NCBI GenBank assembly: GCA_022706785.1
Contig: JAKJBW010000006.1
Coordinates: forward strand, 11,306 to 75,305
Length of the DNA: 64,000 nucleotides
Source of the DNA: Bacillota bacterium
GTDB taxonomy: Bacteria; Bacillota; Clostridia; UBA1381; UMGS1253
Direction of reading: 5' to 3'
Shown: positions 42,634 to 58,633 of the stretch, in pieces
How the letters are laid out: every line of letters starts with the position of its first letter
Position numbering within the stretch: the first letter of the stretch is position 1
Notes under the pieces: model-generated
What the model was told of the DNA's origin: nothing
The model's database searches: none
The model's input: the letters and a program-made list of their open reading frames with translations, nothing else
Program-made: the position numbers and the translations under genes

Positions 42634-44565
42634 ATGGTCGCCGAAAATTTGAGCATTAAAACCGGGCTGCTGGGACTCAGGAAAGCCGACGTTGACAAAT
42701 ATATTACCGGCATGGTGCAGGAATACAGCACCGTACTGTCCGAAATGCGTAAAGAGCTTGCGTCTTTGGGGACGGAAAAAAAACATCTTTTGGCCGAATT
42801 GCAGCGGGCTAAAGCAGAAGGCCGGCAGGTGGTTTATGAAGAAGAACCCGCGGAAAAAAATGCATTTGCAGAATTGCTTAATTATTCGGACAAAGCGGTC
42901 AGGCGCCTGGACAGGACCATCGCACTGATAAATCAGATAGCCGAGCAAAAGATAGATGATATGGTGCAAAAGGCCGGCGTACAGATGGCTGAGTATGATG
43001 CAAAGCTGGCCCGGCTGGGCGATGAGATTGAGCAGACCCGCGGAAGCGTTGAGAGCCTGCTGGGTGAAGTGGTGGATTTACTTAAAACCAATATAGATGA
43101 AATCATAGGCGAACCGCGGGCGCGCAGCTCTGCAGATACGGCCAAAACGCCCGCATCCCCTTCCAAGACCATAAGAAAGGCCACTGGAAACGCTGAGACC
43201 ACTCCCCCGGCGGAAACAGAAAACGTGGTAAGCCTGTTTGGCGCTGCGGCAGGGGCAAAGCCCAGTCTGACGCTTGTGTCCAAGGAAGTGGAAACGGCAG
43301 TTATCAAAACCCTTGAAACCTACCAAAGCCTCAAGGGCGAATACACCAAAAAACTTGAAAGTATTTTAGCTGGGCCAGGCGATGAAATCAGCGGCGCGGC
43401 ATTGTTTTTTCAGATCAATGAATTCGTTATGACCAACTATTTTTTAAATTGCTCTGCCGACGGGGCTTTGATAAAGGCTATTTCAGACTATATTATGAGT
43501 CTGGATAAGGGTGTGTATGTCGAGCGGCTCTCCTACGACCAGCTTGGCGTGATTTATGACGGCCAGAGCAGCAAAGGCAAAGTCTGCGCGTTTGCCAGCG
43601 ATGTGCTGGCTTATATTCAAAGCGGTATTTTTGTAAACGGCAGGAAAGCGGAGCTGTCCGCCAATGCCGGAATTGCGATGTATTCAAAGAACAGCGCAAG
43701 CGCTGAACTTGTGATAAATTATGCGGGTATCGCACTCTATAAGGCTAAGGAGCGGGGCAAGGGCCTATACCAGTTCGTGGATGACAATCTGATCAGTGAG
43801 GTGGAGTTTGATAACGCGTTAAAAGCGGATTTGCGCAGCGCCATTGATAACAACGAACTGGTATTGTTCTATCAGCCGCAGTATACGGCAAAAACAAAAG
43901 AACTGGCGGGTTTTGAAGCGTTGCTCCGCTGGCAGAACCCCAAGTATTATCAAATGTCGATTGATGATATCATAAAAATAGCGGAGCAGGAAAATCTTAT
44001 CGAGAAAATAGGGCTGTATCTGTTTCGCAAAGCGTGCCTGTTTGCTAAGGAAGTGGGGGCCAGAAGCCAAAAACGCTGCATAATTTCGGTCAACTTTTCG
44101 TCCATACAGATCGCAAATGACAATTTTGTGAATATCATAAAGCGTGTGCTGGGCGAAACGGGCGTGCCGCCCGAGTATTTGGGGCTTGAAATCACCGAGT
44201 CATGCTTTATGGACTGTATAGGCGAAACCTGCCAAAAGCTTAATCAGATCAGAAACATGGGCATTACTATTTCTATCGATGATTTCGGCACAGGCTATTC
44301 CACACTGTCCTATCTGCTCAAGCTGCCTGTGTCGGTGATAAAGATCGACAAAACCTTCCTAGACGAGCTGGAGTCGGGTAAAAAGGCCGAGATATTTGTT
44401 GCGTCTATCATTAATACTGCGCACAATCTTGGGCTTCGCGTGGTAGCCGAAGGGGTTGAAAATGAGCGTCAGATGCAGGTGCTGGCGGAAGCGGGATGCG
44501 ATTACCTGCAGGGGTATTATCTGTCAAAGCCGGTTCCCGAAAACGAGGCATACTTGTATTTATAA
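42634..44565 (+). CDS. DivIVA-motif coiled-coil protein fused to a degenerate GGDEF domain and an EAL phosphodiesterase domain
   Basis: The N-terminal GLLGLRKADVDKYITGMVQEY resembles the DivIVA F-x-GY-x2-EVD-x-F motif and is followed by coiled coil. The GGDEF position reads SYDQL. The EAL domain has intact FEALLRW, EITES, DDFGTGYS and KIDKTF. Start at ATG 42634 after AAGGGGG. Confidence 0.8.
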   Translation: MVAENLSIKTGLLGLRKADVDKYITGMVQEYSTVLSEMRKELASLGTEKKHLLAELQRAKAEGRQVVYEEEPAEKNAFAELLNYSDKAVRRLDRTIALINQIAEQKIDDMVQKAGVQMAEYDAKLARLGDEIEQTRGSVESLLGEVVDLLKTNIDEIIGEPRARSSADTAKTPASPSKTIRKATGNAETTPPAETENVVSLFGAAAGAKPSLTLVSKEVETAVIKTLETYQSLKGEYTKKLESILAGPGDEISGAALFFQINEFVMTNYFLNCSADGALIKAISDYIMSLDKGVYVERLSYDQLGVIYDGQSSKGKVCAFASDVLAYIQSGIFVNGRKAELSANAGIAMYSKNSASAELVINYAGIALYKAKERGKGLYQFVDDNLISEVEFDNALKADLRSAIDNNELVLFYQPQYTAKTKELAGFEALLRWQNPKYYQMSIDDIIKIAEQENLIEKIGLYLFRKACLFAKEVGARSQKRCIISVNFSSIQIANDNFVNIIKRVLGETGVPPEYLGLEITESCFMDCIGETCQKLNQIRNMGITISIDDFGTGYSTLSYLLKLPVSVIKIDKTFLDELESGKKAEIFVASIINTAHNLGLRVVAEGVENERQMQVLAEAGCDYLQGYYLSKPVPENEAYLYL

Positions 44566-44596
44566 AATCAGTTTGAGGTTTGAGGGGTTTTATGTT

Positions 44597-45889
44597 ATGA
44601 TAAAAAAAACGCTGTTTCTTTGCCTGGCATGGGTTCTTTCCATAGGCTGTCCGCTTAGCGGCAGCGTCAGTGCCGCCGATGTCAGCTATATGGAGGAGGC
44701 CAGAGTGTTTTACGATCTCGGCCTTTACAAGGGCGTTTCCGCAGACCACTTTGATCCTGATCTGTTCTCATTTTCGGATAAGGAGACGGCGCTTGTTTTC
44801 CTGCTCAGGCTGGCCGGCCAGCGCGATAACGTACAGGCAAGCAGCGACAGCGGGGCAAACTATACGCTGGGCGCCTACACAGACGGAAGTTCGGTGTCGG
44901 ACTGGGCAAGGAAGCATGTGGCTTACGGGCTGCGGCAAAAGCTGATACCCGATATCTCAAACAATCAGATTTTGCCCAAGCGGCTTTGCGATGGCAAGAC
45001 GTTTACCGCTATCCTGCTTCGCATAATGGGGTATTCATTAGACAACGATTTGTGGGAAATATCCACCTACATAAACAGCTATATAGGCGGGATGACAGCT
45101 GACGACGCCAGGGAGTACGCGGACAAAATCCTGACTAAAAACGATATGATCGCCATTGTGTGGAAATCGCTTTATATTAAAGATAAAAACGGCACCAGCT
45201 TTTTAAGCCGCATTGTCGCAGACAATGGCCTGCAAAAAAGCAGGATGACAGCGTTAGGCTTTACCTATTCGTCCAGCGGGATAACCGCCCCGGCTTTCAG
45301 AAAAACGGCAGTGAATCTTGACAATGTTCAAAACAACAGATATAGTATGCAGGATGGGTCGGCATACTACGGCGAAACTTCCGGCGGCGTCCCCAACGGA
45401 AGAGGCGTTGTGTATTATGCCGACGGGAGCAAGTACGAGGGTTCGGTTGTAGGTGGTATGCGTCATGGAGAAGGCAAGCTGACGCGCAACGATGGCTTTG
45501 TTTATTCGGGCAGTTGGGAAAATGATAAAATGACCGGTTACGCCACCTTAAAATGGCCGAGCGGCGACAGCTATACCGGCAATTTGTACACCGGCTATTT
45601 TCAGGGTTACGGTACCATGGTGTGGGCCAGCGGCGACAGCTATACCGGCAATTGGCGTGAAGGTAAGTTTTCGGGCCAAGGCACCTTCAGATGGGCAAAC
45701 GGAAACTACTATCAGGGCGACTGGAGCGATGGTGAATTTGACGGATACGGTGTGCTTAATATACTGAATTCGGGTATTTATGAGGGGCAGTGGCGCATGG
45801 GTAAAAAGAACGGCCGCGGAAAGTTTGTGTCTGTTGGCAGCACTGTCCAGGAGGGAACATGGGAAAATGACAATTATGTAGGGCCGTAA
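44597..45889 (+). CDS. Secreted protein with SLH-like N-terminal region and C-terminal MORN repeats
   Basis: Signal peptide MIKKTLFLCLAWVLSIGCPLSGSVSA. There are at least seven MORN-type repeats (YxGxxxxGxxxGxGxxxxxxG, for example YEGSVVGGMRHGEGKLT, YTGNWREGKFSGQGTFR). Start moved to 44597 (GAGGGG RBS), which removes the overlap with the EAL gene. Confidence 0.75.
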   Translation: MIKKTLFLCLAWVLSIGCPLSGSVSAADVSYMEEARVFYDLGLYKGVSADHFDPDLFSFSDKETALVFLLRLAGQRDNVQASSDSGANYTLGAYTDGSSVSDWARKHVAYGLRQKLIPDISNNQILPKRLCDGKTFTAILLRIMGYSLDNDLWEISTYINSYIGGMTADDAREYADKILTKNDMIAIVWKSLYIKDKNGTSFLSRIVADNGLQKSRMTALGFTYSSSGITAPAFRKTAVNLDNVQNNRYSMQDGSAYYGETSGGVPNGRGVVYYADGSKYEGSVVGGMRHGEGKLTRNDGFVYSGSWENDKMTGYATLKWPSGDSYTGNLYTGYFQGYGTMVWASGDSYTGNWREGKFSGQGTFRWANGNYYQGDWSDGEFDGYGVLNILNSGIYEGQWRMGKKNGRGKFVSVGSTVQEGTWENDNYVGP

Positions 45890-45913
45890 TGGCCGCGAAA
45901 GGCGAGGGTATGG

Positions 45914-46261
45914 ATGCGGGTTGTGGTGCTTTCTCTCTTAAATGCGATTCTTTTGGTGTCCGGCCAGCTTTTGTGGAAGGCCGGCCTTGCGGGGCGGGAA
46001 TTTAACAGCGCTGAAACAATTGTGAAGGCTATGTTCTCGCCGCTTATCCTAACGGGGCTTTTCATATATGCTGCCGCGACGGTGCTGTGGCTGTATATCC
46101 TTACCCAGGCCGATATCAGCTATGTGTATCCGCTTACCAGTGTGGTTCATATCATTATGCTTTTGGTGGCGCTGTTTATCTTTAAAGAGCATGTGTATCT
46201 TACCAGATGGATAGGCGTTTTTCTCATTACTGCCGGCGTGTGCTTTGTGGGACTCAGATAG
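45914..46261 (+). CDS. Small 4-TM EamA/DMT-type protein (ArnE/ArnF-like lipid-linked sugar flippase candidate)
   Basis: 115 aa with four hydrophobic helices. The pattern LWLYILTQADISYVYPLTS...WIGVFLITAGV is typical of single EamA domains. Confidence 0.6.
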   Translation: MRVVVLSLLNAILLVSGQLLWKAGLAGREFNSAETIVKAMFSPLILTGLFIYAAATVLWLYILTQADISYVYPLTSVVHIIMLLVALFIFKEHVYLTRWIGVFLITAGVCFVGLR

Positions 46262-46329
46262 GCGTCTAAAAGGATACAAAACAGTTTTTACGACCCGGTT
46301 TTGCCGGCCGACTTTTGGGGGTGTGATGG

Positions 46330-46707
46330 ATGCTTGATCGAAATCTTCAGATTATTTTGCTGATTGTAACGCTTTCATTTTTGGTTTATATAATAAACAT
46401 GGTAAGAAACAAAAAACTGGAGCTTCGCTACATCTTAATCTGGCTCCTTACCGCCGTGGGGCTGCTTGTGATTACCATCCTGCCGGGCGCTATCCATATG
46501 CTGTCGGCTATGCTGCATATTGTGGAGCCGGTAAACACACTGTTTTTGGCAATCATTTTCTTTTTGATTATGATTATTTTTTCACTGACAAAGGAAGTGT
46601 CAAGACACTTTGTGAAAATAGGAACGCTGGTTCAGGAGATTGGGCTTTTGAAGCTTGAAATAGAAGCGCTGAGAAAACAGGTTACGGATAATAGCGAAAG
46701 CAAATAA
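46330..46707 (+). CDS. DUF2304-like small membrane protein
   Basis: 125 aa. The N-terminal TM is followed by VRNKKLELRYILIWLLTAVG, then more TM helices and a C-terminal coiled tail. This matches my recollection of DUF2304 proteins that accompany GT2 genes. Confidence 0.55.
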   Translation: MLDRNLQIILLIVTLSFLVYIINMVRNKKLELRYILIWLLTAVGLLVITILPGAIHMLSAMLHIVEPVNTLFLAIIFFLIMIIFSLTKEVSRHFVKIGTLVQEIGLLKLEIEALRKQVTDNSESK

Positions 46708-46788
46708 ACGGCGGGGCGATAAAGCTATCGCCAGGGTTTTGTTTAATGCGGATGATTTTAGTATGTTTTGCGAGGGGGATCGGGTGGT

Positions 46789-48513
46789 GTGAGTAAAAAT
46801 ATCAAGGTTATGCTGACAACGGAGGGAACCTACCCTTTCCATCAGGGAGGCGTAAGCACTTGGTGTGATATTCTGGTGAACAAGCTGGACAGTGTGGATT
46901 TCGTGCTCTACAGCCTGATGATGAACCCGTTTATCTCGCAGATATTTCCGCTCCCCTCTTCAACGCAGCTTGTCAAGGTGCCGCTGTGGGGCACGGAGGA
47001 ACCGAGCGAATACCTTGAAAGCTCATTTTCGCGGGTGTACCTTTCCAAGCAGAGAACTACCGACGATGTTGTGGAAAAAAAGTTTCTGCCCCTTTTCAAG
47101 GCGCTTATCAGAGAGTTTGTGAGCCTTGAAAAAAATCCTGTGCGGCTTGGCGAAACGCTTTATGCGATGTATCTGTATTTTCAGGAGTATGAGTACAAGA
47201 AAAGCTTTAAATCCGATATCACATGGGCCGAATATAAGCGCCTGATACATGACTTTACTGAGGATGAGGAGAACAAAATAGACAGCCCCAGTGTTTATGC
47301 GCTTATTCAGAGCCTGGGGTGGGTATACAGGTTTATGGTCACGCTAAACACCCCGCTTCCCGAGGCGGATGTGGTGCATTCGGCAGCGGCGGCCTTTTGC
47401 GGGATCCCGTGCGTGCTGTCCAAAATTGAGCGGAAAACACCGTATATGCTCACAGAGCACGGCGTGTATATCAGAGAACAGTATCTGTCGCTGTCCAAGC
47501 GGGGATATCCTTCGTTTTTAAATACATTTTTTATACGCATGATCAACTCGATAATAAGCTTAAATTACGAGTATGCCGACATCGTTTCGCCCGTGTGCAA
47601 ATATAATACGCGCTGGGAACAGCGGTTCGGCGTTGTTAAAGAAAAAATAAATGTCATATACAACGGCGTTGACACCGAAAAGTTTGCTCCGGCTTCGGCC
47701 AAAAAAGTCAAGGATGTGCCCACCGTCGTTTCCATAGCCCGTATAGATCCGCTTAAGGATATTATAACGCTTATCGAAGCCACCGAGCTGGTGGCAAGGG
47801 AAATCCCCGATGTCAGGGTGATTGTGTACGGCTCTGTTTCGGTGGACGATTATTATGAGGAGTGCACACAGAAGGTCAAAAGCCTTGGCCTTGAGGACAC
47901 AGTCATCTTTGCGGGGCACACCAGTGATGTGCCCGCGGCCTATAACAGCGGCGACATTATTGCATCGTCGAGCATTTCGGAGGCGTTTCCGTATTCAGTG
48001 GTGGAGGCTATGATGAGCGGCAAGCCTGTGGTTTCAACCGATGTGGGTGGAATTGCTGAAGCGCTTGGCGACTGCGGGATCCTTGTCACGCCAAGGGCGC
48101 CGGCAGAGCTTGCGGAAGGCATCGTCAAACTGCTGCAGAATCCGGATATGGTGGAAGACATGGGGAAACGCGCCAGGATAAGGGCGCTAGAGCATTTTTC
48201 CATTGAAAAGGTGCTGGAGAACCATTATAATACTTATAATGGACTTATTGCAGGAGATTATCAGCTCAAGAAGACTTTGCCTATTTCACTTTTGCAAAAG
48301 CAGAAGTTTTATGCCGAAAAAGGCTATACCCTTTTGAATATGGGCTATATCAAAGAGGCAATCGAGCAGTTTCGGGAGGCGATCAGCGCATCGCCAAACA
48401 CGCCTACTGTTCCGGTGCTTATGCTTGAAATCGCCAATGCCTATAAGAAAATGGGGGAGCACCAAAAAGCAGATCTTGAAATAGAAAAAATCGGCTATAT
48501 CACAGGCGCGTAA
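46789..48513 (+). CDS. pelF: PelF-like glycosyltransferase (DUF3492 plus GT4) with C-terminal TPR extension
   Basis: The N-terminal MLTTEGTYPFHQGGVSTWCDILV matches the PelF/DUF3492 signature (EGTYPYxxGGVSSW). The GT4 core has SISEAFPYSVVEAMMSGKPVVSTDVGG. The last ~90 aa are TPR-like (YAEKGYTLLNMGYIKEAIEQFREAI...IANAYKKMGEHQKA). The start is GTG 46789 or ATG 46810. Confidence 0.8.
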   Translation: MSKNIKVMLTTEGTYPFHQGGVSTWCDILVNKLDSVDFVLYSLMMNPFISQIFPLPSSTQLVKVPLWGTEEPSEYLESSFSRVYLSKQRTTDDVVEKKFLPLFKALIREFVSLEKNPVRLGETLYAMYLYFQEYEYKKSFKSDITWAEYKRLIHDFTEDEENKIDSPSVYALIQSLGWVYRFMVTLNTPLPEADVVHSAAAAFCGIPCVLSKIERKTPYMLTEHGVYIREQYLSLSKRGYPSFLNTFFIRMINSIISLNYEYADIVSPVCKYNTRWEQRFGVVKEKINVIYNGVDTEKFAPASAKKVKDVPTVVSIARIDPLKDIITLIEATELVAREIPDVRVIVYGSVSVDDYYEECTQKVKSLGLEDTVIFAGHTSDVPAAYNSGDIIASSSISEAFPYSVVEAMMSGKPVVSTDVGGIAEALGDCGILVTPRAPAELAEGIVKLLQNPDMVEDMGKRARIRALEHFSIEKVLENHYNTYNGLIAGDYQLKKTLPISLLQKQKFYAEKGYTLLNMGYIKEAIEQFREAISASPNTPTVPVLMLEIANAYKKMGEHQKADLEIEKIGYITGA

Positions 48514-48622: not shown

Positions 48623-49054
48623 ATGCCGGTTACCGACAGAGTCACATTGTTCGGATACAGTGCTACGGAAGTTGAAAAACGGGTGGAAAAGATAAAAGCG
48701 GAGTTTGAGGAAAAGAAAGCTGAGCTTGAAGCTTCCGTTTCCGAGCTCAAGGCAGAGCTTGAGACGCTCAAAACGCAGATCGAGCATGAAAAAAACAACA
48801 AAAAGGTTGTCGTGAAAAAGCGGGTCGTGCATGCTCAGGGCACTGAAAGCAAGGAACAAAGTGAGATAATGGAGGCGCTCTACAACGCGCATATCAAATC
48901 CACCGAGCGCATTTTGAAGGTGCAGAAGAATATCTCCATGACCTTGGAGAAACGAAAGTCACTCATACTGATCCGTGAACGTAAGGCCAATGAAATGAAA
49001 AATGATTTGCAGAATCTGATAGATTATATCGACTCACTGGCAAAAAGCTACTAG
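48623..49054 (+). CDS. DivIVA-motif coiled-coil protein (short)
   Basis: 143 aa with N-terminal LFGYSATEVEKRVEKIKAEFEEK followed by heptad-rich sequence. GAGGGGGA RBS. Confidence 0.6.
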   Translation: MPVTDRVTLFGYSATEVEKRVEKIKAEFEEKKAELEASVSELKAELETLKTQIEHEKNNKKVVVKKRVVHAQGTESKEQSEIMEALYNAHIKSTERILKVQKNISMTLEKRKSLILIRERKANEMKNDLQNLIDYIDSLAKSY

Positions 49055-49089: not shown

Positions 49090-50193
49090 ATGGCGTCTTT
49101 TGATTTGAATTTTCCTACCAGCTTTTTTGGCCTGAATAAAAAGGATGTACGCAAATGTTTTGAAGAGCTGGAAAAAGAGCAGAAAAAAGTAATGGAAGAG
49201 CTCGAGAAAAAGAAAAAACAGCTGGAACGTGAAGAACAAAAGCTACAGGAAAGCTTGGACGAAGCCCAAAAAGAGATTGTAAAATATGAAGACGAAATCG
49301 TAGAAACTCCTGGTTTGCCAAGCGAGCTTATTAGCGACGCCTATAAAAGGACGGAAAAGACCACGGCGCTGATTAACATGCTGGCCGATGAGGAAGCCGC
49401 ACAGCTCACCAAAAAGGCAAATGAAAAGCTGGCCGAATACGATATCATGCTTGACGAGCTGCAGGAATCCATCAATGAAAATAAAGAGAAGATCGAGGCT
49501 ATACTAAACGATGTGCTCAGTCTTTTGAAGGCCAATGCGGAAAGCGTGATCAAGAAGGATAAAAAGCCCGATTATAAAGACGAGCTTGCCGAGCCGGAGC
49601 TGTCGGGCAAAAAGGTGATTGACCTATTCCGTGAGAAGCTTCAGGAAAACAAGCTTTCGCTTGAAAAAGAGCAGCGGGAGAGAATGACTGCGGACGGCAC
49701 CTCTCTTGACAATATCAACAAGCTGATGATGTTTAAGAAAAAATATGCCTCCCAGAAAGACGAGGAGGATGAAGACGAGCTTGCCGAGGTGCTTATAGGG
49801 AAAAAGAAGCCCAAAGATGAGCTGTATGATCTGCTCAACGGCTATGATGTTGACGATGATGCCTATGAGGAGCGGGCTGCCGTAAGAAAGCCGGCCAAAC
49901 CGGGGCTAGGCGCTATTGACCGGTTTGCGTTTGATGAAACGGAAGAAGAAAGCCCTGCGGCGGGGACGCGGCCTTCCCAAACCGCAGAGGGTGCGCAGGC
50001 CGGCAGTGAAACTGAGATCAAGCAGATGAGAAACACCCTGATTATTGGCAAGATTGCGGGTGAGGACCTTGTCGACAGTGAAAATAACGTGGTGATACCC
50101 AAGGGCAAGGTGCTTTCAGAGGAGGATATTGCTTTGGCTGAGGCGGCTGCAAAGCTGCCGGAGCTGATCATAAATATGGTGCTGCCACAATAA
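49090..50193 (+). CDS. DivIVA-motif coiled-coil protein (long, acidic) with a small C-terminal globular module
   Basis: 367 aa with N-terminal FFGLNKKDVRKCFEELEKEQKK, long E/K-rich coiled coil, an acidic linker, and the C-terminal IIGKIAGEDLVDSENNVVIPKGKVLSEEDIALAEAAAKLPELI. Confidence 0.6.
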   Translation: MASFDLNFPTSFFGLNKKDVRKCFEELEKEQKKVMEELEKKKKQLEREEQKLQESLDEAQKEIVKYEDEIVETPGLPSELISDAYKRTEKTTALINMLADEEAAQLTKKANEKLAEYDIMLDELQESINENKEKIEAILNDVLSLLKANAESVIKKDKKPDYKDELAEPELSGKKVIDLFREKLQENKLSLEKEQRERMTADGTSLDNINKLMMFKKKYASQKDEEDEDELAEVLIGKKKPKDELYDLLNGYDVDDDAYEERAAVRKPAKPGLGAIDRFAFDETEEESPAAGTRPSQTAEGAQAGSETEIKQMRNTLIIGKIAGEDLVDSENNVVIPKGKVLSEEDIALAEAAAKLPELIINMVLPQ

Positions 50194-53905: not shown

Positions 53906-55984
53906 ATGTTTCCCATACAGCACACACTGTTTTTGTTAATCAAAGTGCTGCTGGCTTTTGGCATTTTATATATTTTCCTTCCGTCCAGACTGACCGTGTT
54001 TGATGAGCATGGTGATGACTGGACAGACAAAGTCATGGTGTCTATGACCCATTCGCATGTTATTATCATCATCCTGGTGCACCTTTTGGTGGTATTGCGG
54101 ATATATGAAACGATTTCTTTGTTTATCGCCATTATCGCGCTGACGATATTCATCATATCCCTGCGCGCAAAAAGAGCCAGACAGGAGACGGAGGAAAAGC
54201 GCAGTGCGTTTTCCCTGCTGCTGGACGTGGTGGATGGCAGACTGGGCAACAAGACGCAGCGAAGGCAGAAGCTGTCTGAATATTTAAAGAAAGCGCCTGC
54301 GGCACTTATGCGCGGGATAACACATGCCTTTATCCATCCGTTCGACGGGGTGATACTGTTTGCCCTGTTTGGGGTGGCTGCGGCAATAAGGTTTAGCCAT
54401 GCGATGCAATACCTCTACTATGGCGCCTCCGACTGCTACGTTCACCTTGCGTGGGCAAAGTATCTGGGTGTTAATAAGCTTTATTATGACGGTGTTTATC
54501 CTTATGGATACGAGGCCATCATATCGGCGCTGCAAAAGCTTTTCTTTATCGATCCGGCTGTGATTGTGCGGTTTTACGGCGGCATAGGCAGTATGCTGAT
54601 TGTATTTTCCATTTTCTATATTTTAAGAAAGAATATGAAGGGCAAATATATTCTGATTTTCGCAGGTGTTGCGGCGTATGTGTTGGGCACCGAGCTGCCC
54701 AACGAAACCAACAACATCTGGCGTCAGCTGTCCGCGCTGCCGCAGGAGTATGCCGCCGCATTTGTACTGCCGGGCATACATTTCCTCAACGTGTTCTTCA
54801 ACACGGGCAGGAGGCGGTATCTCGCACTGGCGGCTGAGGTTCTGGCAATCACGGTGTTCATCCACTTTTATGCTGCCGCGTTCTTGGGTATCGGTTACGC
54901 TTTTTTGACCTTGTTTCACTTTGGCAAGCTGTTTCGGGGCAAGACATTGCCGCGACTCATTGGATATCTTGGCTTTGGCGGTGCGATAGGCATTTTGCCT
55001 ATTGCGGTAGCGCTCGGGCTGGGCATGAAATTCCACCAGCTGTCCCTAGGCTTCGTTGCAGAAAGCGCTACCGTTTCAACAGCGCTTGACTGGCATACCG
55101 AGATTTTCCGCTACAGGGAAGTTGACCCCACGCTAAAGCTGGTTTTGTTTTGCGCTTTGGCAGTAGCGGTTTATACAGCCCTGCGGGCGTTTTTCAAAAA
55201 AAGCCCGGCATACGCCTCAGCGGCTCCGTTGACGCTTACCATTGCCGCGATGAGTGTATTGTCCTATACTCAGGTCCGCGCTGAGTATATCGGCTTTCCG
55301 TCGCTGCTTGAGTTTTCCAGGGCCAGCACATTCTTCGGTTTTGTGGCTGTGGCGCTGCTTGCCTTGACCATCTATCTTCTGGTCGAGTTTCTGCCCGTTC
55401 ACAAGCTGGTCAAGTATGTTGCCGGGTTTGGTATGAGCGCCTTTGTGCTCATGACTGTGTTCCAGCCGCAAAATTATGCCGTGATGCAGCCTACAGGGGC
55501 AAAGCTTGAGTATGATGAAGCCGCCTACGCGTACTATAAAATAAAAGAGGATTTTCCCATCTTAAACTGGACCATCATCTCGCCGGTTGAACAGTATCAG
55601 CAGAGCATGGGCTACGGATGGCACTACAACCTGTGGGAATTTGTTAAGGACATCCAGATAGACAAGAAGGAAGAGGTATCCTTTCCCACCGATTATGTCT
55701 TCGTGATTGTGGAAAAAAAGCCGCTGAATCAAGCCAAGCCGTATACCGAGATGCCCGAAATTACAACGGAGGATGCGTCACAGCCGTTTCCGGATATGTC
55801 AGGCTCTCCGGAAAAATACTACACCATCTATGAAAACCGCAGAGTCATTGAGGCGAAGGCATATTATTGGATGGAGGAATACATGGGGACAAAGGGTAAC
55901 TTTGCGGTTTACTGGGAAGATGATAAACTTAAAATATATATGTTGAAGCAGGATGGAACAGAGCCGGTCAATCTGGCGCAATGA
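53906..55984 (+). CDS. Large polytopic membrane protein with C-terminal soluble domain (paralog B)
   Basis: About 692 aa from ATG 53906 (AAGGGGG RBS). It is colinear with paralog A, including the C-terminal W-x-I-I-S...EK-K/R block. Confidence 0.5.
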   Translation: MFPIQHTLFLLIKVLLAFGILYIFLPSRLTVFDEHGDDWTDKVMVSMTHSHVIIIILVHLLVVLRIYETISLFIAIIALTIFIISLRAKRARQETEEKRSAFSLLLDVVDGRLGNKTQRRQKLSEYLKKAPAALMRGITHAFIHPFDGVILFALFGVAAAIRFSHAMQYLYYGASDCYVHLAWAKYLGVNKLYYDGVYPYGYEAIISALQKLFFIDPAVIVRFYGGIGSMLIVFSIFYILRKNMKGKYILIFAGVAAYVLGTELPNETNNIWRQLSALPQEYAAAFVLPGIHFLNVFFNTGRRRYLALAAEVLAITVFIHFYAAAFLGIGYAFLTLFHFGKLFRGKTLPRLIGYLGFGGAIGILPIAVALGLGMKFHQLSLGFVAESATVSTALDWHTEIFRYREVDPTLKLVLFCALAVAVYTALRAFFKKSPAYASAAPLTLTIAAMSVLSYTQVRAEYIGFPSLLEFSRASTFFGFVAVALLALTIYLLVEFLPVHKLVKYVAGFGMSAFVLMTVFQPQNYAVMQPTGAKLEYDEAAYAYYKIKEDFPILNWTIISPVEQYQQSMGYGWHYNLWEFVKDIQIDKKEEVSFPTDYVFVIVEKKPLNQAKPYTEMPEITTEDASQPFPDMSGSPEKYYTIYENRRVIEAKAYYWMEEYMGTKGNFAVYWEDDKLKIYMLKQDGTEPVNLAQ

Positions 55985-56004
55985 AGACAGGGGGGATTTT
56001 ACAA

Positions 56005-57843
56005 ATGATTAACGGAGTTTGGGGTTGGTATCAGATACTGGCGGTTTTGGCCGTTCTGCTGTTGCTGTGTATACTGATTGGGATTATAAGCTATTTTCGT
56101 AAAAAAGCCGGCATAGAAAAACAGCTGTATGAAAAGATATTTAACAGCTGTAAGGAGCCGTGCAATATCAATCAGACGATAGGCGGCATTTTTAGGCTGA
56201 TGTCCGCCAAGATAAAGGCAAACGAGTACGGTTTTTATTTATTGGACGGCAAAAACGGCCAGTTTGTGCTTAAGTCTATCCACTATAAAAACGAAAGTGA
56301 CGATAATCTTAATTTGTCTTATTCGGGGTTGATCCCGCATAAGGATATCAAATATGTTTTTCCTGTGGCGCTTGGCCCCGCGGATATTGCAAAAGATGTG
56401 GGTGTCTTAAATGAGGCAAAGACCAAGATAGCGTATGTGCGCATACGTGGCGGCAAGGCGCTTATCCAGCTGGTGGTAGGCAGCAGCTTCAAAATGGATA
56501 AAAACACGGCCGCAGCGCTGAAAAACGTGTCTGAAAGACTGGAGTCCGTTATCCAGTGCCTTATTGAAGCCGAAATTAAAAACACCAAGGCCAAGATTTT
56601 GGAAACCTCCCAGCAGGCTACCAAGAGCATAACAAGTATGATAAGCGGTGACGGTATCCTTAAAATGGCGGTGAGCATGTTTACCAAGACCATCAACGCC
56701 AAGGGCGGATTTTTCCTCAAGCGGGGCGAGGACGGTTATGAGCTGGAGGTAAATACAGGGTTTTCCAAGGAAACGGGCGTCATGTTCAAATACGATGCCG
56801 AGCTGCACGGTTTTCTCTACGATTTTCTGGGCAGTAAAAAGCTTGCTACGCTGAATGTCAACGACAGCAACTTTTCCATCATGCCAATATACTTAATCGC
56901 CGAAGGCGTAAAGCAGATACTGCTGTTTAGGATCGATTATGCGGATAATGTGGGTATTGCGGGTTTTTGGTACGATCAGCCGTATGAAATAGATGAATAC
57001 CAAACCGTGTCGCTGCTGTTGATGTTTTCAAAAATATCTGACGTTTTCGGCAAAACCAAGCAGCTTTCACGCAGCTGTGCCGACAACATCGAGACCTTAA
57101 AGCTCATATCCACGCTGGTTGACGATTTAAGCCCCTACACCGTCGGCTTTTCAAGCCTGATGCAGAAGTATGCCACACTGATTGCAGAGCACATGCGGCT
57201 TCCGAAAGAAGAGGTTGACGAGATCGCGCTGGCGGCGTTTTTAAGCAATATCGGTATTGCAGCGCTTTCATATGACGTTTTCCTTAAGAAGGGCAAATAC
57301 ACTGAATTTGATTATGAAATCATAAAGCTTCACTCCGAGGTAGGCGCGGATATTATTGAGTCGCTCCAGGGGCAGAGCCGGGCGGCGGATATGGTGCGCT
57401 ACCATCACGAGCGCATAGACGGCTGCGGATACCCTTATGGACTAAAAGGTGACGATATCCCCATCGGTGCAAAGATTTTGGCGGTGGCGCAGTTCTTTAT
57501 CGCAAAAATATCGCCAAGGAATTTCCGGGACGCCAGTACATACGATGAGGCCTTGGCAGCCATAGAAAGCGCGGCGGGCACCCAGCTGGACAAAGACGTG
57601 GTCGACAATTTCCTGAGCTGTGTTGCAAACATAAGAAATGAGCACAAATATGATGATGGTTCCTTAGACTACTGCTGGAATATGCGTTTTGTGTCCAGTG
57701 AGCTTTGCAACAAGTGTCCCGTTAAGGTGCGTACCGACAGGAAATGCTGGGAGAGTTCCGCGACGCTGTGTGTGGCGCACGGAAACAAGTGTGAAACGTG
57801 TTTTATTTATACCGAGTATCAGGGAAGAATGAACAAGAATTGA
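56005..57843 (+). CDS. Membrane-anchored GAF-like / HD-GYP protein with C-terminal Cys-rich 'two-CW'-like domain
   Basis: One N-terminal TM (WYQILAVLAVLLLLCILIGIISYF), two GAF-like regions, HD-GYP motifs (HSEVGADII, HHERIDGCGYPYGL), and the tail YCWNMRFVSSELCNKCPV...RKCWESSATLCVAHGNKCETCFIY. The start is ATG 56005 (AGGGGGGA RBS); the alternative is 55981. Confidence 0.8.
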   Translation: MINGVWGWYQILAVLAVLLLLCILIGIISYFRKKAGIEKQLYEKIFNSCKEPCNINQTIGGIFRLMSAKIKANEYGFYLLDGKNGQFVLKSIHYKNESDDNLNLSYSGLIPHKDIKYVFPVALGPADIAKDVGVLNEAKTKIAYVRIRGGKALIQLVVGSSFKMDKNTAAALKNVSERLESVIQCLIEAEIKNTKAKILETSQQATKSITSMISGDGILKMAVSMFTKTINAKGGFFLKRGEDGYELEVNTGFSKETGVMFKYDAELHGFLYDFLGSKKLATLNVNDSNFSIMPIYLIAEGVKQILLFRIDYADNVGIAGFWYDQPYEIDEYQTVSLLLMFSKISDVFGKTKQLSRSCADNIETLKLISTLVDDLSPYTVGFSSLMQKYATLIAEHMRLPKEEVDEIALAAFLSNIGIAALSYDVFLKKGKYTEFDYEIIKLHSEVGADIIESLQGQSRAADMVRYHHERIDGCGYPYGLKGDDIPIGAKILAVAQFFIAKISPRNFRDASTYDEALAAIESAAGTQLDKDVVDNFLSCVANIRNEHKYDDGSLDYCWNMRFVSSELCNKCPVKVRTDRKCWESSATLCVAHGNKCETCFIYTEYQGRMNKN

Positions 57844-57853
57844 GGTATTTTAT

Positions 57854-58633
57854 TTGCGCAGAGAAAACCGACTGCATGGAATTAAAAATTTTACTGTTTA
57901 CTATGGATACGGCAAAGAAGACCAGCTGGCAAGCTATGACCTTTTGGTTTTGGAGCCTAAGGCACGCATGCCGCAGGATATTTATGCGCTTAAACGTACA
58001 GGCAGCACAGTTGTCGCGTATTTAAGCGCGGTGGAGGTAAGCAGCGACGACGAGCTTTTTAGCGCGCTTGGCGAAGAAGACATCCTGCGTTCTAAAGACG
58101 ATCCTCTTATCAACAAGGAATACGGCACACATTATATGGATATTGCTTCGCCCAAGGTGCAGAATCTGCTGCTCTATCGTGTGGAGGATATTTTGAAAAG
58201 CGGCTATGACGGCATTTTCCTCGACACACTCGACGATATTGAATATTTAAATATTTCCCGGGAAAAGCAAAAGGCTATGCTTGCGGGCGCAGGCCGGGTC
58301 GCCAAGGAAATCAGGCGGCTGTTTGCCGATTCGGTTTTAGTGCAGAACAATGGCCTTTTGCAGGTATGTGACTATACTCATGCTTATATAGACGCCATAT
58401 GCTTTGAGAACCCACCGTATAAAACCTGGGGCGGCCTTGTTTGGACAGCAAGCGCCCTTGCCAGGGCAGGACGGCTGCGCAGGGATTTTGGCATACAGCT
58501 TTTGTTGCTGCATGGGCTTTGTGCAAATGATAACAATGTCAAAAACCGTATTTCCCGTTATGTGCTGAAGCATTTTGCAAAGCTCAGGGGCTATTTGTAC
58601 TATGAAACCGGCAGTCATTATAATCGCATCTGA
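57854..58633 (+). CDS. GH114 / TM1410-family TIM-barrel glycoside hydrolase-like protein (PelA-hydrolase/endo-alpha-1,4-polygalactosaminidase-like)
   Basis: SYDLLVLEP...TVVAYLSAVEV...GYDGIFLDTLDDIEY matches the family pattern (DLVVID..AYLSxGE..GFDGVxLDxVD). TTG start. No signal peptide is visible. Confidence 0.65.
   Translation: MRRENRLHGIKNFTVYYGYGKEDQLASYDLLVLEPKARMPQDIYALKRTGSTVVAYLSAVEVSSDDELFSALGEEDILRSKDDPLINKEYGTHYMDIASPKVQNLLLYRVEDILKSGYDGIFLDTLDDIEYLNISREKQKAMLAGAGRVAKEIRRLFADSVLVQNNGLLQVCDYTHAYIDAICFENPPYKTWGGLVWTASALARAGRLRRDFGIQLLLLHGLCANDNNVKNRISRYVLKHFAKLRGYLYYETGSHYNRI

Follow-up and report, generated by a model that had tools for sequence, protein, structure and literature searches.

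The Pel machinery uses UDP-GalNAc as the substrate for an alpha-1,4 chain of GalNAc and GalN. In canonical systems the scaffold is formed by PelD and PelE, and PelD is the receptor. In the two systems studied, Pel-dependent biofilm formation requires a CE4 deacetylase, provided by PelA in P. aeruginosa (PMC10269871) and by PelA_DA in B. cereus (PMC13254593). Lipid-linked sugars are made with the help of DUF2304 proteins such as GacJ, which forms a complex with GacI and stimulates it, just as Rv3632 stimulates PpgS (bioRxiv 10.1101/180810). Multi-component transmembrane glycosylation systems in print share exactly the parts list of GT2, DUF2304 protein, flippase and GT-C enzyme (PMC8035078). 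In DvhD, an SQ-type HD-GYP domain serves as a receptor, binding c-di-GMP without metal (PMC13090378).

Here we describe a real, conserved and hitherto undescribed cluster of the Gram-positive Bacillota that joins a Pel-type core, a second, lipid-linked sugar-decorating machine and cyclic-di-GMP signalling parts. It lies in a window of 64,000 nt (GCA_022706785.1, contig JAKJBW010000006.1, 11,306-75,305 of the forward strand). Full-text literature searches returned no description of this combination of parts, in agreement with an earlier note on this DNA, which had matched it to no described system.

Gene content and extent of the locus

Twelve co-directional genes (g1-g12) occupy 42634-58633 on the plus strand, and the short gaps and overlaps described in the earlier note measure -4 to 109 nt in the ORF calls. 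Its count of thirteen genes falls to twelve because a DivIVA-like coil and an EAL domain share a single ORF (42628-44565, which also encodes the GGDEF domain). Profile scores bear out its identification of a PelF-like DUF3492/GT4 enzyme, a GH114/TM1410-like hydrolase, an EamA-like 4-TM protein, a DUF2304 protein and a MORN-repeat secreted protein.

42634-44565, plus strand: g1, DivIVA-like N-terminal coil, degenerate GGDEF and EAL, 645 aa (EAL 228 bits, GGDEF 29.7 bits)
44597-45889, plus strand: g2, signal-peptide-like N-terminus and five MORN repeats (Pfam MORN 101 bits in five stretches)
45914-46261, plus strand: g3, 115-aa 4-TM half-size DMT/EamA protein (Pfam EamA 32.5 bits, cut-off 28.2)
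46330-46707, plus strand: g4, small DUF2304 membrane protein of the GacJ/Rv3632 family (Pfam DUF2304 83.1 bits)
46789-48513, plus strand: g5, PelF-like cytosolic GT4 glycosyltransferase, DUF3492 and GT-B (DUF3492 127.6 bits, Glycos_transf_1 112 bits)
48623-49054, plus strand: g6, 143-aa soluble coiled-coil protein with a DivIVA-like N-terminal F-G-Y motif (motif, position)
49090-50193, plus strand: g7, 367-aa soluble protein with DivIVA-like N-terminus, coiled coil, acidic linker and BBM2-like C-terminal module of ~60 aa (Pfam DivIVA 17.5 bits)
50207-51811, plus strand: g8, 534-aa polytopic membrane protein in the pelG position (Pfam PelG E 0.14, synteny)
51833-53806, plus strand: g9, 657-aa polytopic paralog of g10 (BLASTP against g10)
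53906-55984, plus strand: g10, 692/698-aa protein with multi-TM core and C-terminal alpha/beta domain (AlphaFold, Foldseek)
55981-57843, plus strand: g11, TM, GAF, GAF, degenerate HD-GYP and Cys-rich tail (Pfam HD_5 108.5 bits)
57854-58633, plus strand: g12, PelA-hydrolase-like/GH114 TIM-barrel protein (Pfam Glyco_hydro_114 45 bits, cut-off 27)
58654-58692, plus strand: terminator-like hairpin and U-tract ending the g1-g12 run (RNA folding, sequence reading)

The hairpin itself spans 58654-58684 (dG -21.2 kcal/mol, z -2.55) and is followed by the U-tract, which places the terminator close to the 58651-58691 first proposed; it was not among the outputs of a simple terminator scan. The functional locus reaches upstream to 37415 and takes in five further genes, among them two GT2 genes just upstream of 42634-58633 that had been overlooked.

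37415-38161, minus strand: stand-alone HD-GYP phosphodiesterase (Pfam HD_5 101 bits, HD 60.6 bits, motif check)
38191-38880, minus strand: GT2 'b', 229-aa soluble GT-A glycosyltransferase (Pfam Glycos_transf_2 89 bits)
39099-39824, minus strand: GT2 'a', 241-aa paralog of GT2 'b' (Pfam Glycos_transf_2 99.9 bits)
40304-41068, plus strand: LytTR-type response regulator (Pfam Response_reg and LytTR)
41094-42401, plus strand: membrane GHKL histidine kinase, partner of the LytTR regulator (Pfam HATPase_c_5 60.6 bits)

Conservation across Bacillota

The order PelF, larger g7-type coil, PelG-like protein and two GT-C proteins is kept in each of the 15 Bacillota loci whose completeness allows a judgement, and a g6-type coil protein is present in all of them except one (L033). 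Their sources include Oscillospiraceae-type MAGs, Psychrobacillus, Paenisporosarcina, Ectobacillus, Gorillibacterium and Peptococcaceae. As the order recurs in independent genomes, the gene arrangement is not due to chance, and the co-conservation that the earlier note had asked about is found in every sufficiently complete related locus. The PelF of this core carries a TPR extension, and GT2, DUF2304, MurJ, CE4, HD_5 and GH114 proteins recur around it. Most of the 15 loci encode three proteins that the window lacks (CE4 deacetylase, ATP-grasp protein, MurJ-type flippase); the deacetylase of the relatives had previously gone unremarked.

The Pel-type core

PelF membership of g5 is solid on sequence. 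It scores 154.6 bits against the NCBIfam PelF model (cut-off 100), a curated equivalog, is 26-33% identical to PGAP-annotated PelF proteins, and has RxxxxK and EX7E motifs legible in its translation. The presence of DUF3492 answers the possibility of a generic GT4 enzyme. Its C-terminal TPR extension (TPR_8 at 514-544) is clade-specific: matches to g5 run to residue ~575 in Bacillota loci only and end near 494 elsewhere.

The 12-TM protein g8 does occupy the pelG position, directly downstream of the coil genes in every compared locus, whereas its membership of the PelG family is marginal. The Pfam PelG score of g8 is only 11.5 bits, a weakness that counts against a Pel-like polymer. The same profile is matched by 7 of 20 family members, the best being the L005 ortholog at 29.2 bits (cut-off 29, profile positions 28-452). 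Comparison of the g8 family with three canonical PelG proteins by hhalign gives a co-linear alignment (E 0.0047 local, 1.5e-4 global; probability 7-25%), and the g8 family HMM did not find those three proteins. It has an additional cytosolic N-terminal domain of ~90 aa, and g8 is best described as distantly and marginally PelG-like. The suspicion that g8 and the hydrolase might match unrelated families is settled for the hydrolase, a GH114/PelA protein, and for g8 the resemblance is weak but consistent. PelA (5tcb, E 1.7e-13) is the best sequence match of g12 among solved structures. No signal peptide, TM segment or hydrophobic N-terminus was found in g12, nor a hydrophobic N-terminus in 5 orthologs, and there is no in-frame start upstream in the window or in those orthologs.

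As the earlier note had it, the other recognised Pel components are missing: PelD, PelE, PelB, PelC and a CE4 deacetylase are all absent from the window. The P. aeruginosa and B. cereus systems, in contrast, need their CE4 enzyme. The lack in the window of the CE4, ATP-grasp and MurJ proteins of most relatives, and of an export signal on g12, also speaks against a Pel-type machine. The acceptor of the GT-C enzymes described below could be another wall polymer or a protein. A GalNAc/GalN polymer, for its part, would fit the CE4 enzyme in most relatives and the GalE-type epimerase in L005.

A proposed lipid-linked sugar module

Together, the DUF2304, GT2, flippase and GT-C proteins would make up a GacIJKL-type lipid-linked glycosylation module, a grouping that the earlier note did not draw. 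Among solved structures, the top sequence matches of GT2 'a' are Dol-P-Man synthase 5mlz (E 1.1e-18), ArnC 9hwj and GtrB 5ekp, and with the in-operon GT2 of L024 it shares 54% identity. GT2 'b' shares 62% identity with GT2 'a' and 57-61% with the lone GT2 between MORN/EamA and DUF2304 in L001-L004, and is a candidate undecaprenyl-phosphate sugar synthase of the GacI/PpgS/ArnC kind. By family assignment, g4 would activate and anchor such a GT2 polyprenyl-phosphate sugar synthase. The DUF2304 gene directly follows a GT2 gene in the gene tables of L023, L024 and L033, and in L001-L003 as judged from tblastn coordinates. L024 has two GT2-DUF2304 pairs beside its two GT-C genes, the first placed directly between GT-C a and GT-C b and the second after MurJ. 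The GT2 genes of the window (38191-39824) lie on the minus strand, while those of relatives lie within the operon; this opposite orientation speaks against the model given below.

With NCBIfam E-values of 3e-8 for ArnE and 2.6e-6 for ArnF, neither reaching the cut-off, g3 is a candidate ArnE/ArnF-like undecaprenyl-phosphate sugar flippase. It is found only in the window and L002, a MurJ-type protein standing in its place in other loci, and its absence from the closest relatives L001, L003 and L004 weakens this assignment.

The two polytopic paralogs of ~650-700 aa, already guessed to be GT-C enzymes, are 24% identical end to end (E 4e-34). In a Foldseek PDB search with the g10 AlphaFold model (pLDDT 80.7, pTM 0.83), the top 21 matches are all GT-C enzymes, including STT3 (6ezn_F, E 6.5e-6, TM 0.43-0.46), DPY19, AftA, PglB, AglB, EmbA/B and AftD, and subsequent matches have a probability <0.3. 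A GT-C fold is predicted for g10, although the TM-scores, at 0.38-0.46, are moderate and rest on a predicted structure; its family counts 1251 representatives at E<=1e-3, of which 0 are named. Nothing in Pfam or NCBIfam matches g9, for which we infer the same fold through paralogy; its E175 falls opposite the invariant D182 in the alignment with g10.

Coiled-coil proteins and the secreted MORN protein

No family exceeds threshold for g6 in Pfam and profile searches, and in 14 loci the interval between PelF and the larger coil protein holds a counterpart of 111-151 aa with an aligning motif. The C-terminal domain of g7 (~60 aa) is kept in 14/14 aligned loci, and its profile matches an RNA polymerase beta fragment (3e7h, E 9.9e-5). 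Three DivIVA-motif coiled-coil proteins had been proposed; motif and coil are present, but the DivIVA family scores are sub-threshold (17.5-18.4 bits, cut-off 28), and the resemblance comes down in essence to an N-terminal F-G-Y/L...V motif together with the coiled coil. One of the three is the N-terminus of g1, leaving two separate proteins; its first 160 aa are paralogous to the N-terminus of g7 (33% identity, E 2e-19). Orthologs of the predicted secreted protein g2, which has a hydrophobic N-terminus, occur in L001-L004, and L024 encodes a MORN-like protein upstream of PelF.

Signalling proteins

Two c-di-GMP turnover proteins had been claimed, and only the EAL protein stands. The motifs EALxR, EITE, DDFGTG, KIDK, EGVE and QGYY are all found in g1, which carries SYDQL in place of GGDEF and is an active-looking c-di-GMP phosphodiesterase. 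On sequence grounds g11 is a pseudo-enzyme rather than a turnover enzyme because SN stands in place of the HD dyad and the family as a whole has lost two further metal ligands. Among 27 family members S422 is found in >=90% of sequences, N423 is invariant, and seven Cys and one His are invariant or nearly so; the first His ligand reads as F/Y, and invariant Q504 replaces a canonical Asp. The AlphaFold model (pLDDT 81) matches the HD-GYP structures 4mcw, 4r8z and c-di-GMP-bound DvhD 9rbz in Foldseek, and the tandem-GAF proteins 1mc0, 1ykd and 3ibj. Neither the tandem GAF domains nor the pseudo-enzyme nature of g11 had been recognised before. DvhD offers a precedent for g11, which may serve the machine as c-di-GMP receptor or regulator and is a plausible analogue of the receptor PelD.

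All HD, HHE and GYP motifs are intact in the stand-alone HD-GYP protein, whose gene is the last of the divergent GT2-GT2-HD-GYP unit. The LytTR regulator, whose gene also immediately precedes the EAL gene in L001-L004 (54-58% identity), is the probable transcriptional regulator of the operon; its partner kinase has homologs in L003 and L004. In several Bacillales versions the flanks (~10 kb) hold no c-di-GMP genes, and therefore the c-di-GMP wiring is not universal to the family.

A model for the machine

As family membership suggests, g5 would polymerise a nucleotide sugar in the cytosol and the polymer would pass the membrane via the PelG-like g8. By homology with GacI/GacJ, PpgS/Rv3632 and ArnC, g4 and the pair of soluble GT2 enzymes may load undecaprenyl phosphate with a monosaccharide at the inner membrane face. 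The ArnE/F-like DMT protein g3 may then flip the lipid-linked sugar, as a MurJ-type protein would in most relatives, and g9 and g10, given their predicted fold, would move the sugar onto the nascent polymer as putative acceptor at the outer face. In place of the PelD/PelE scaffold of canonical Pel, we propose the two DivIVA-like coils and the PelF TPR tail, possibly siting the machine at poles or septa. Control would be through local c-di-GMP, with domain states read directly and ligand binding predicted: the intact g1 phosphodiesterase, sharing its N-terminal module with g7, would act alongside the intact HD-GYP enzyme (37415-38161), presumably co-transcribed with the GT2 genes, with membrane-anchored g11 as receptor or regulator in PelD's stead. 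The LytTR two-component system would govern transcription, and the PelA-hydrolase-like g12 may trim or process the polymer.

A new exopolysaccharide or surface glycosylation machine, as first proposed, gains support from the PelF score, the GH114/PelA match and gene co-localisation. We put roughly even chances on the fuller reading, that the locus is a Bacillota-specific variant of the Pel-type exopolysaccharide machine with a lipid-linked side-chain glycosylation module under local c-di-GMP control.

Organisation of the gene run

The run at 42634-58633 on the forward strand consists of 12 co-directional open reading frames, designated g1 to g12 from 5' to 3', with intergenic distances of -4 to 109 nt and purine-rich ribosome-binding sites before most of them. 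An earlier note, made from the sequence alone, had counted thirteen genes, because a DivIVA-like coil and an EAL domain that it listed separately share a single open reading frame. This frame is uninterrupted (42628/42634-44565) and encodes a 645-aa EAL protein (g1), of which the supposed first DivIVA-motif protein is the N-terminus. The run continues with a MORN protein (g2), an EamA protein (g3), a DUF2304 protein (g4), a PelF-like glycosyltransferase (g5), two coil proteins (g6 and g7), a PelG-like membrane protein (g8), a pair of polytopic paralogs of 657 and 698 aa predicted to be GT-C enzymes (g9 and g10), a degenerate HD-GYP protein (g11) and a GH114 protein (g12). Other features of the window are as follows.

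605-3340, 3766-5931 and 28595-30007, reverse strand: SLH-domain surface proteins, including a SASA esterase, a GH5 enzyme and a cadherin/Big_9 protein
12422-13312, forward strand: stand-alone GGDEF diguanylate cyclase (147 bits), 30 kb upstream of the run
14273-16282: GdpP-type c-di-AMP phosphodiesterase
37415-38161, reverse strand: intact HD-GYP gene, following the GT2 pair
38191-38880, reverse strand: soluble GT2 gene, outside the interval of the earlier note
39099-39824, reverse strand: second soluble GT2 gene, likewise outside that interval
40304-42401: LytTR response regulator and histidine kinase, preceding g1

The terminator said to close the run was found as a hairpin at 58654-58684 followed by a U-tract, with a folding energy of -21.2 kcal/mol (z -2.55 against shuffled sequences); it is not in the list returned by a simple terminator scan. 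Housekeeping genes, Sua5/TsaC among them, lie 3' of the run. Between the DUF2304 and PelF genes, a terminator-like hairpin GGCGATAAAGCTATCGCC with a weak T-tract occurs at 46715-46732 on the forward strand, which may be an internal attenuator or a chance match. Upstream, g1 has an AT-rich leader of 230 nt (42402-42633). Neither this leader nor the divergent region gave an Rfam match to a riboswitch, for c-di-GMP or any other ligand, even at E<=1, and so no c-di-GMP riboswitch was detected ahead of g1. The sole Rfam match across the whole window is a tRNA at 36664-36737 on the reverse strand.

Pel-type components

The assignment of g5 (46789-48513) as a PelF-like enzyme with DUF3492 and GT4 domains is upheld by Pfam (DUF3492 127.6 bits, Glycos_transf_1 112 bits) and by the NCBIfam PelF model NF038011 (154.6 bits against a cut-off of 100). 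g5 is 26–33% identical to PGAP-annotated PelF proteins across residues ~10-495, and its translation contains the RxxxxK and EX7E motifs needed by working GT4 enzymes. The C-terminus bears an extra TPR. Matches that reach ~residue 575 come from Bacillota relatives only, and those of cyanobacterial, acidobacterial and plasmid-borne PelF proteins end near residue 494.

The GH114-like hydrolase is also as described. g12 (57854-58633) scores 45 bits against the Pfam GH114 cut-off of 27, and its best sequence match among solved structures is the PelA hydrolase domain (5tcb, E 1.7e-13). Neither g12 nor any of five orthologs carries an export signal in the form of a signal peptide or transmembrane segment, and no alternative upstream start is available for g12. 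A signal peptide encoded upstream of the start was considered and rejected, as the apparent tblastn extension crosses a stop codon.

The 12-TM protein g8 does occupy the pelG position, while its identity as PelG is marginal by sequence, with 11.5 bits (E 0.14) against the Pfam PelG model PF16933, which has a cut-off of 29. The Psychrobacillus ortholog, at 48% identity, reaches 29.2 bits and spans profile positions 28-452 of 452, PelG is matched at E<=0.01 in 7 of 20 g8 family members, and a small number of homologs in the database come with PF16933 as a precomputed annotation. Alignment of the g8 family with three annotated PelG proteins by hhalign is co-linear over ~360 columns and weak (local E 0.0047, probability 7%; global E 1.5e-4, probability 25%); against a single canonical PelG it is uninformative (probability 0.7%), and an HMM of the g8 family does not recover the three canonical PelG proteins. 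What the same HMM does recover are membrane proteins without a name, encoded after PelF in Thermus, Streptomyces, Kocuria and Deinococcus; the match is mainly via a common cytosolic N-terminal domain of ~70 aa. A tblastn search of plasmids with g8 returned no match.

The absence of further Pel parts, as asserted from inspection, is borne out within the window, where tblastn with canonical PelB, PelC, PelD, PelE and PelG finds nothing. The only GGDEF-like domain of the run sits in the soluble EAL enzyme g1, and its only TPR is the C-terminal tail of PelF; g11 has transmembrane and GAF domains but, unlike PelD, an HD-GYP nucleotide domain. CE4-DUF3473 deacetylase queries from two related loci, L023 and L024 (loci found in other genomes are numbered with an L), match nothing in the 64-kb window by tblastn, while a CE4 deacetylase gene is present in 10 related loci. 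The Pel-family members here are PelF and, by fold family, the PelA hydrolase only, with g8 a marginal case. The run could in principle be an ordinary Gram-positive pelDEA(DA)FG operon whose PelD, PelE and PelA deacetylase are too divergent for detection; PelD and PelE are known to diverge strongly enough that it took iterative HMM searches to find them in Gram-positives (PMC7112194). We regard this as very improbable, since all genes of the run are assigned and none encodes a TM-GAF-GGDEF, TM-TPR or CE4 protein. In addition, the CE4-DUF3473 gene of the relatives lies downstream of the GT-C genes, directly or after an ATP-grasp gene, whereas pelDEA(DA)FG has its deacetylase before pelF.

A predicted GT-C pair and a proposed lipid-linked sugar module

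Pfam and NCBIfam give nothing usable for g6, g8, g9 and g10 by sequence alone. The two large polytopic proteins are paralogs end to end (24% identity, E 4e-34). An AlphaFold model of g10 built from a 17-sequence alignment (pLDDT 80.7, pTM 0.83) was compared with the PDB by Foldseek. GT-C enzymes account for every one of the best 21 matches, with probability 1.0 and E-values as low as 6.5e-6; they are STT3, DPY19, AftA, PglB, AglB, EmbA/B and AftD. The alignments of 546-760 columns cover most of the query, with moderate TM-scores of 0.29-0.46, and the next matches are MFS transporters at probability <0.3. The g10 family profile matches no solved GT-C enzyme by sequence. An exhaustive profile search places 1251 cluster representatives in the g10 family, 621 of them at E<=1e-30, and a word-index search found no named member among these representatives. 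The motif S181-D182-x-Y-V-H in a loop after a transmembrane helix is invariant across the 17 sequences, and D182, which aligns with E175 of g9, is a candidate for the conserved acidic (DxD-like) residue that GT-C cores have in their first extracytoplasmic loop. The polytopic paralogs are predicted to be GT-C fold glycosyltransferases, g10 from its model and g9 through paralogy.

Both the DUF2304 protein and the EamA-like protein named in the earlier note match Pfam above cut-off, g4 with 83.1 bits against 25.5 and g3, a half-size protein of 115 aa, with 32.5 bits against 28.2, the latter falling below the ArnE/ArnF cut-offs. The MORN-repeat secreted protein stands too, g2 having MORN repeats and a hydrophobic N-terminus. 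GacJ, of the DUF2304 family, complexes with the soluble GT2 GacI and stimulates synthesis of undecaprenyl-phosphate-GlcNAc; its mycobacterial homolog Rv3632 likewise stimulates the polyprenyl-phosphate-GalNAc synthase PpgS, and the Gac system is completed by the flippase GacK and the GT-C enzyme GacL (bioRxiv 10.1101/180810).

The two soluble GT2 proteins of the window are 62% identical to each other, and their closest solved relatives, Dol-P-Man synthase (DPMS), ArnC and GtrB, are all polyprenyl-phosphate glycosyltransferases, which makes them candidate polyprenyl-phosphate sugar synthases. Their genes form a GT2-GT2-HD-GYP unit divergent from the LytTR regulator/kinase pair. L001-L004, which are the closest relatives, have just one GT2 ortholog (57–62% identity) inside the operon, between MORN/EamA and DUF2304, and the window has only 68 nt at the corresponding spot; this genome has therefore relocated and duplicated its GT2. 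An orthologous GT2 is also within the operon in L023, L024 and L033. The small EamA protein occurs in the window and L002 only, being absent from L001, L003 and L004, and other loci have MurJ-type proteins.

c-di-GMP proteins and coil proteins

The EAL protein g1 was correctly recognised as a turnover protein for c-di-GMP. Its EAL domain scores 228.4 bits and retains all catalytic motifs (EALxR, EITE, DDFGTG, KIDK, EGVE and QGYY), its GGDEF domain is degenerate, with SYDQL in place of GGDEF, and it is a candidate active phosphodiesterase. The stand-alone GGDEF protein at 12422-13312 is, by its domain, the only candidate c-di-GMP synthase within the window.

The second claimed turnover protein, g11, does have an HD_5 domain (108.5 bits), but it has lost some of its metal ligands and the turnover role falls with them. 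Across 27 family members the HD dyad is replaced by S422 (at least 90% of sequences) and N423 (invariant), and in the alignments the first His ligand reads as F/Y and an invariant Q504 replaces the Asp of the xDxxDA motif. Three metal ligands are accordingly substituted, while HHE and GYP are kept. The 248-aa HD-GYP protein encoded at 37415-38161 retains HD, HHE and GYP. The AlphaFold model of g11 (pLDDT 81) predicts a transmembrane helix, then two alpha/beta domains linked via a long helix, and after these the HD-GYP domain with its Cys-rich tail. Foldseek matches for the HD-GYP part are PmGH, PA4781 and c-di-GMP-bound DvhD, and those for the predicted tandem GAF are PDE2A, PDE5/6, CyaB2 and the GAF-PHY module of phytochrome. 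Throughout the family the tail (57700-57840) keeps eight invariant or almost invariant residues, seven Cys and one His, in the pattern CW..R...C..CP...C...C.AHGN.C.TC. It resembles a site for binding metal or Fe-S that has been attached to an inactive HD-GYP domain.

Precedents exist for such a protein. DvhD of Desulfovibrio vulgaris, an HD-GYP fold in which HD is changed to SQ, has been shown experimentally to be a metal-free c-di-GMP receptor (PMC13090378), and in the YN-GYP protein PA2572 of P. aeruginosa the HD dyad is also replaced, as it is by SN in g11. DvhD and g11 are both membrane-anchored with sensory domains upstream, and the g11 model superposes on c-di-GMP-bound DvhD with a TM-score of ~0.8 (normalised to target). 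g11 differs in keeping HHE and GYP, in having tandem GAF rather than PAS domains, and in its conserved Cys-rich tail, which probably binds metal. By analogy g11 is a candidate c-di-GMP receptor. Its domains and lost ligands would therefore give a layout of transmembrane segment, GAF and dead c-di-GMP domain as in PelD, with another nucleotide domain.

Of the three DivIVA-motif coiled-coil proteins reported, one is the g1 N-terminus, and the motif and coil are real but fall below the Pfam DivIVA threshold of 28 (g7 17.5 bits, g1 N-terminus 18.4 bits, no match for g6). The g6 and g7 families keep an N-terminal F-G-Y/L...V motif and a coiled coil, and only these features resemble DivIVA. Residues 1-160 of g1 and the N-terminus of g7 are paralogous to each other (33% identity, E 2e-19). 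At the C-terminus of g7 (50010-50190) is a module of ~60 aa with the pattern YIVGKxAGEDLxDxxGxLIIxKxxxITxExVxxAxxxGKLAELIVNM; Pfam returns only noise for it and no family, and its profile resembles an insert module from the beta subunit of RNA polymerase (3e7h, E 9.9e-5). The module is conserved in every related locus aligned; the g7-position proteins of L024 (246 aa) and L033 (453 aa) have no tblastn match, that of L024 aligning in the C-terminal module and that of L033 being left out of the alignment.

A conserved core in Bacillota

The gene set is co-conserved in related genomes. A g5 scan of one genome per species returned 22 loci and look-ups of g10 homologs added three more, which were compared by tblastn and gene tables. 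Fifteen are long enough to judge (L001-L003, L005-L010, L012, L013, L020, L023, L024 and L033), from Oscillospiraceae and Clostridia MAGs, Psychrobacillus, Paenisporosarcina, Ectobacillus, Gorillibacterium, Peptococcaceae and others. In 15 of 15 the core order is kept: PelF with its TPR comes first, followed by the two coil proteins, the small one ahead of the larger one that bears the C-terminal module, and then by the PelG-like protein and the first and second GT-C. The small-coil slot of L033 is a 70-aa open reading frame that was outside the comparison. The nearest relatives of the locus are in Oscillospiraceae, Clostridiaceae and Eubacteriales MAGs. Cyanobacterial and acidobacterial loci have only PelF and a 23–25% identical g8 homolog in common with it.

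Around this core recur GT2-DUF2304 pairs, a MurJ-type flippase, ATP-grasp and CE4+DUF3473 proteins, an HD_5 protein of ~630 aa and GH114. L024 has two GT2-DUF2304 pairs, the first flanked by the GT-C genes and the other located after MurJ, and in L005 a GalE-type epimerase gene is directly 5' of PelF. Several relatives have ATP-grasp and CE4+DUF3473 genes directly after the second GT-C (L005 18733-20759; L023 12057-14090), and where present the ATP-grasp protein suggests amino-acid or carboxylate modification of the polymer. The clade of the window and L001-L004 lacks ATP-grasp, CE4 and MurJ, with none anywhere in the 64 kb, and has gained the EAL protein, the MORN protein and the LytTR system.

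This synteny bears on whether a single machine is encoded at all. A Pel-like operon could simply adjoin an uncoupled module for glycosylation of teichoic acid or wall polysaccharide. The usual targets of GT2/flippase/GT-C modules are LTA, WTA or rhamnan, the GT2 genes of the window are transcribed separately on the other strand, and the flippase type differs among loci. Mere adjacency is nonetheless distinctly improbable, as the GT-C pair is directly 3' of the PelG-like gene in all 15 complete Bacillota loci, which span several orders, and holds that position although the peripheral genes are shuffled. GT2-DUF2304 genes also intrude into or abut the core, between the GT-C genes in L024 and upstream of PelF in L001-L003, and the GT-C family was not seen outside a PelF context in the places sampled.

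Within the cluster, identity across loci is highest for PelF (54–77%) and the PelG-like protein (47–75%), against 23–59% for the GT-C proteins. This sits poorly with a model in which the GT-C pair is the true polymerase, working outside the membrane from undecaprenyl-phosphate sugars in the manner of Emb/Aft enzymes, with PelF and the PelG-like protein providing only a primer or anchor. Such a model has attractions: AftA, EmbA/B and AftD are among the structural matches of g10, two GT-C paralogs with two GT2 proteins recall the heteromeric EmbA-EmbB, and L024 sets two GT2-DUF2304 pairs beside two GT-C genes. With its RxxxxK and EX7E motifs retained, however, PelF looks catalytically intact, and known Gram-positive GT2/DUF2304/GT-C systems add single side-chain sugars. 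We consider polymerisation by the GT-C pair improbable.

Discussion

The locus is Pel-like at its core and GacIJKL/PpgS-like at its periphery. As in the Pel systems of Bacillus cereus ATCC 10987, pelDEA(DA)FG (PMC7112168), and Pseudomonas, pelABCDEFG, a PelF-type DUF3492/GT4 enzyme is followed by a polytopic protein in the pelG position, with a GH114 protein like the PelA hydrolase and c-di-GMP proteins nearby; relatives of the locus often also have a CE4 deacetylase and an epimerase. There are also differences. PelD, PelE, PelB and PelC are missing, as is a deacetylase in the window. PelF has its own TPR tail, and the PelG-like protein, which is only marginally related to PelG, starts with an additional cytosolic domain. 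The invariant core contains, as insertions, a pair of DivIVA-like coil proteins and a pair of GT-C enzymes. In the candidate receptor an HD-GYP domain stands where PelD has GGDEF, and the hydrolase has no signal peptide. From the other direction, GacI/GacJ/GacK/GacL of the group A carbohydrate (bioRxiv 10.1101/180810) and PpgS/Rv3632/Rv3779, which decorate mycobacterial arabinogalactan with GalN, have, like the locus, a soluble GT2, a DUF2304 partner and a GT-C enzyme (predicted in the locus), and their flippase has a candidate counterpart in g3. Here, in contrast, the GT-C enzymes form a paralog pair whose family is unnamed and lacks both Pfam and NCBIfam models. The candidate flippase is a half-DMT protein of ArnE/F-like type, with a MurJ-like one in relatives, and not of the Wzx type (GacK) or GtrA type, and the module is tied genetically to a PelF/PelG-like core and not to a rhamnan, teichoic-acid or arabinogalactan pathway.

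A further cluster type is plasmid-borne, in Deinococcus aquaticus (L026), Streptomyces californicus (L029), Thermus brockianus (L030) and Kocuria rosea (L031), and comprises PelF, a PelG-like protein, Sph4 and GH114, annotated only as pelF and hypotheticals. The membrane protein after PelF and g8 have their cytosolic N-terminal domain in common (HMM E 1e-12 to 3e-6; hhalign probability 97.7%), and the GH114 protein is, as in the locus, an 'endo alpha-1,4 polygalactosaminidase'. Unlike the locus, these clusters have no GT-C, GT2/DUF2304 or DivIVA-like genes; the large hypotheticals beside PelF were considered as members of the GT-C family and rejected, being soluble proteins with no HMM match and no transmembrane segments. 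The clusters also contain sugar-nucleotide enzymes; Sph4, a spherulation-specific family 4 protein, is absent in L026 and not annotated in L030. This cluster type is reminiscent of the fungal galactosaminogalactan gene set.

From families, predicted structures and synteny we infer a working model. PelF would build a chain from a nucleotide sugar on the cytoplasmic side, and its passage across the membrane would fall to the PelG-like protein. A Pel-type alpha-1,4-GalNAc backbone fits the PelA-like hydrolase and the CE4 and epimerase genes of relatives; as the window has no deacetylase, its product may retain full acetylation, or the enzyme that deacetylates it may be encoded elsewhere. In parallel, GT2 and DUF2304 would load a monosaccharide onto undecaprenyl phosphate, g3 (MurJ in relatives) would flip the lipid-linked sugar, and the GT-C pair would transfer it to the polymer outside the cell, the two GT2 and two GT-C paralogs suggesting either a pair of substituents or one heteromeric enzyme. 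In place of the PelD/PelE scaffold, the coil proteins may act together with the TPR tail of PelF and position the complex, and since the EAL enzyme g1 shares the g7 module it may sit at the machine. g11 may gate activity by sensing c-di-GMP, another GAF ligand, or a redox or metal signal via its Cys-rich tail, with transcription probably controlled by the LytTR pair.

The same parts could instead serve a surface glycoconjugate pathway, in which the PelF-like GT4 assembles a lipid-carried glycan for flipping by the PelG-like (MOP/PST-like) protein and for en bloc transfer to a protein or wall polymer by an STT3/PglB-like GT-C. The oligosaccharyltransferases STT3, PglB and AglB are the best structural matches of g10, relatives carry a MurJ-type flippase, and candidate acceptors are at hand in the secreted MORN protein, which recurs in the locus, and the several SLH-domain surface proteins that the genome encodes. 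The presence of these SLH-domain proteins indicates that the organism makes a secondary cell-wall polymer to which SLH domains bind, and the GT-C enzymes could use this polymer, too, as acceptor. We nevertheless think this pathway unlikely. An initiating phosphoglycosyl transferase of the WecA/WbaP type was not found in or near the loci examined, GT2/DUF2304 indicates monosaccharide-phosphate-lipid rather than oligosaccharide-diphosphate-lipid donors, and a PelA-type polymer hydrolase, together with the CE4 polymer deacetylase of relatives, fits a polysaccharide product. Nor is PelF known to act on lipid carriers.

Decoration of an exported Pel-type polymer thus remains our preferred reading. 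Full-text literature searches returned no account of PelF clustered together with GT-C enzymes, DUF2304 or DivIVA-like proteins. A systematic survey of 2020 notes Gram-positive operons in which pelF and pelG were the sole loci recognised (PMC7112194), and the accessory sets of Whitfield et al. differ, including CotH, a polyphosphate polymerase, DUF4956, DUF4832 and GalE (PMC7112168). The locus is real, conserved, uncharacterised and mechanistically suggestive, and it is an assembly of recognisable modules rather than something categorically new. A bolder reading, which we consider somewhat less likely than not, is that it represents the first synthase-dependent (Pel-type) machine hard-wired to an extracytoplasmic GT-C module, of an unnamed family of >1,000 sequence clusters, with PelD/PelE replaced by DivIVA-like coil adaptors and a c-di-GMP-sensing GAF-GAF-HD-GYP pseudo-enzyme. 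Bacillota would then have an alternative and widespread way of making, decorating, localising and switching a biofilm polymer.

In Gram-positive anaerobes and in Bacillota of soil, understanding of biofilm matrix polysaccharides and of c-di-GMP signalling is poor, and the cluster-specific proteins are at present nearly all annotated 'hypothetical'. The locus offers a defined, testable gene set in Paenibacillus, Psychrobacillus, Aneurinibacillus, Clostridium swellfunianum, Peptococcaceae, Oscillospiraceae and others. If the working model is right, a role would follow for a large orphan GT-C family, the PelG-like family and the degenerate HD-GYP family, and a DivIVA-type positioning module would be linked to polysaccharide secretion. 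It would also mean that lipid-linked donors can decorate synthase-dependent polymers after export, joining mechanisms that have so far been treated as separate.
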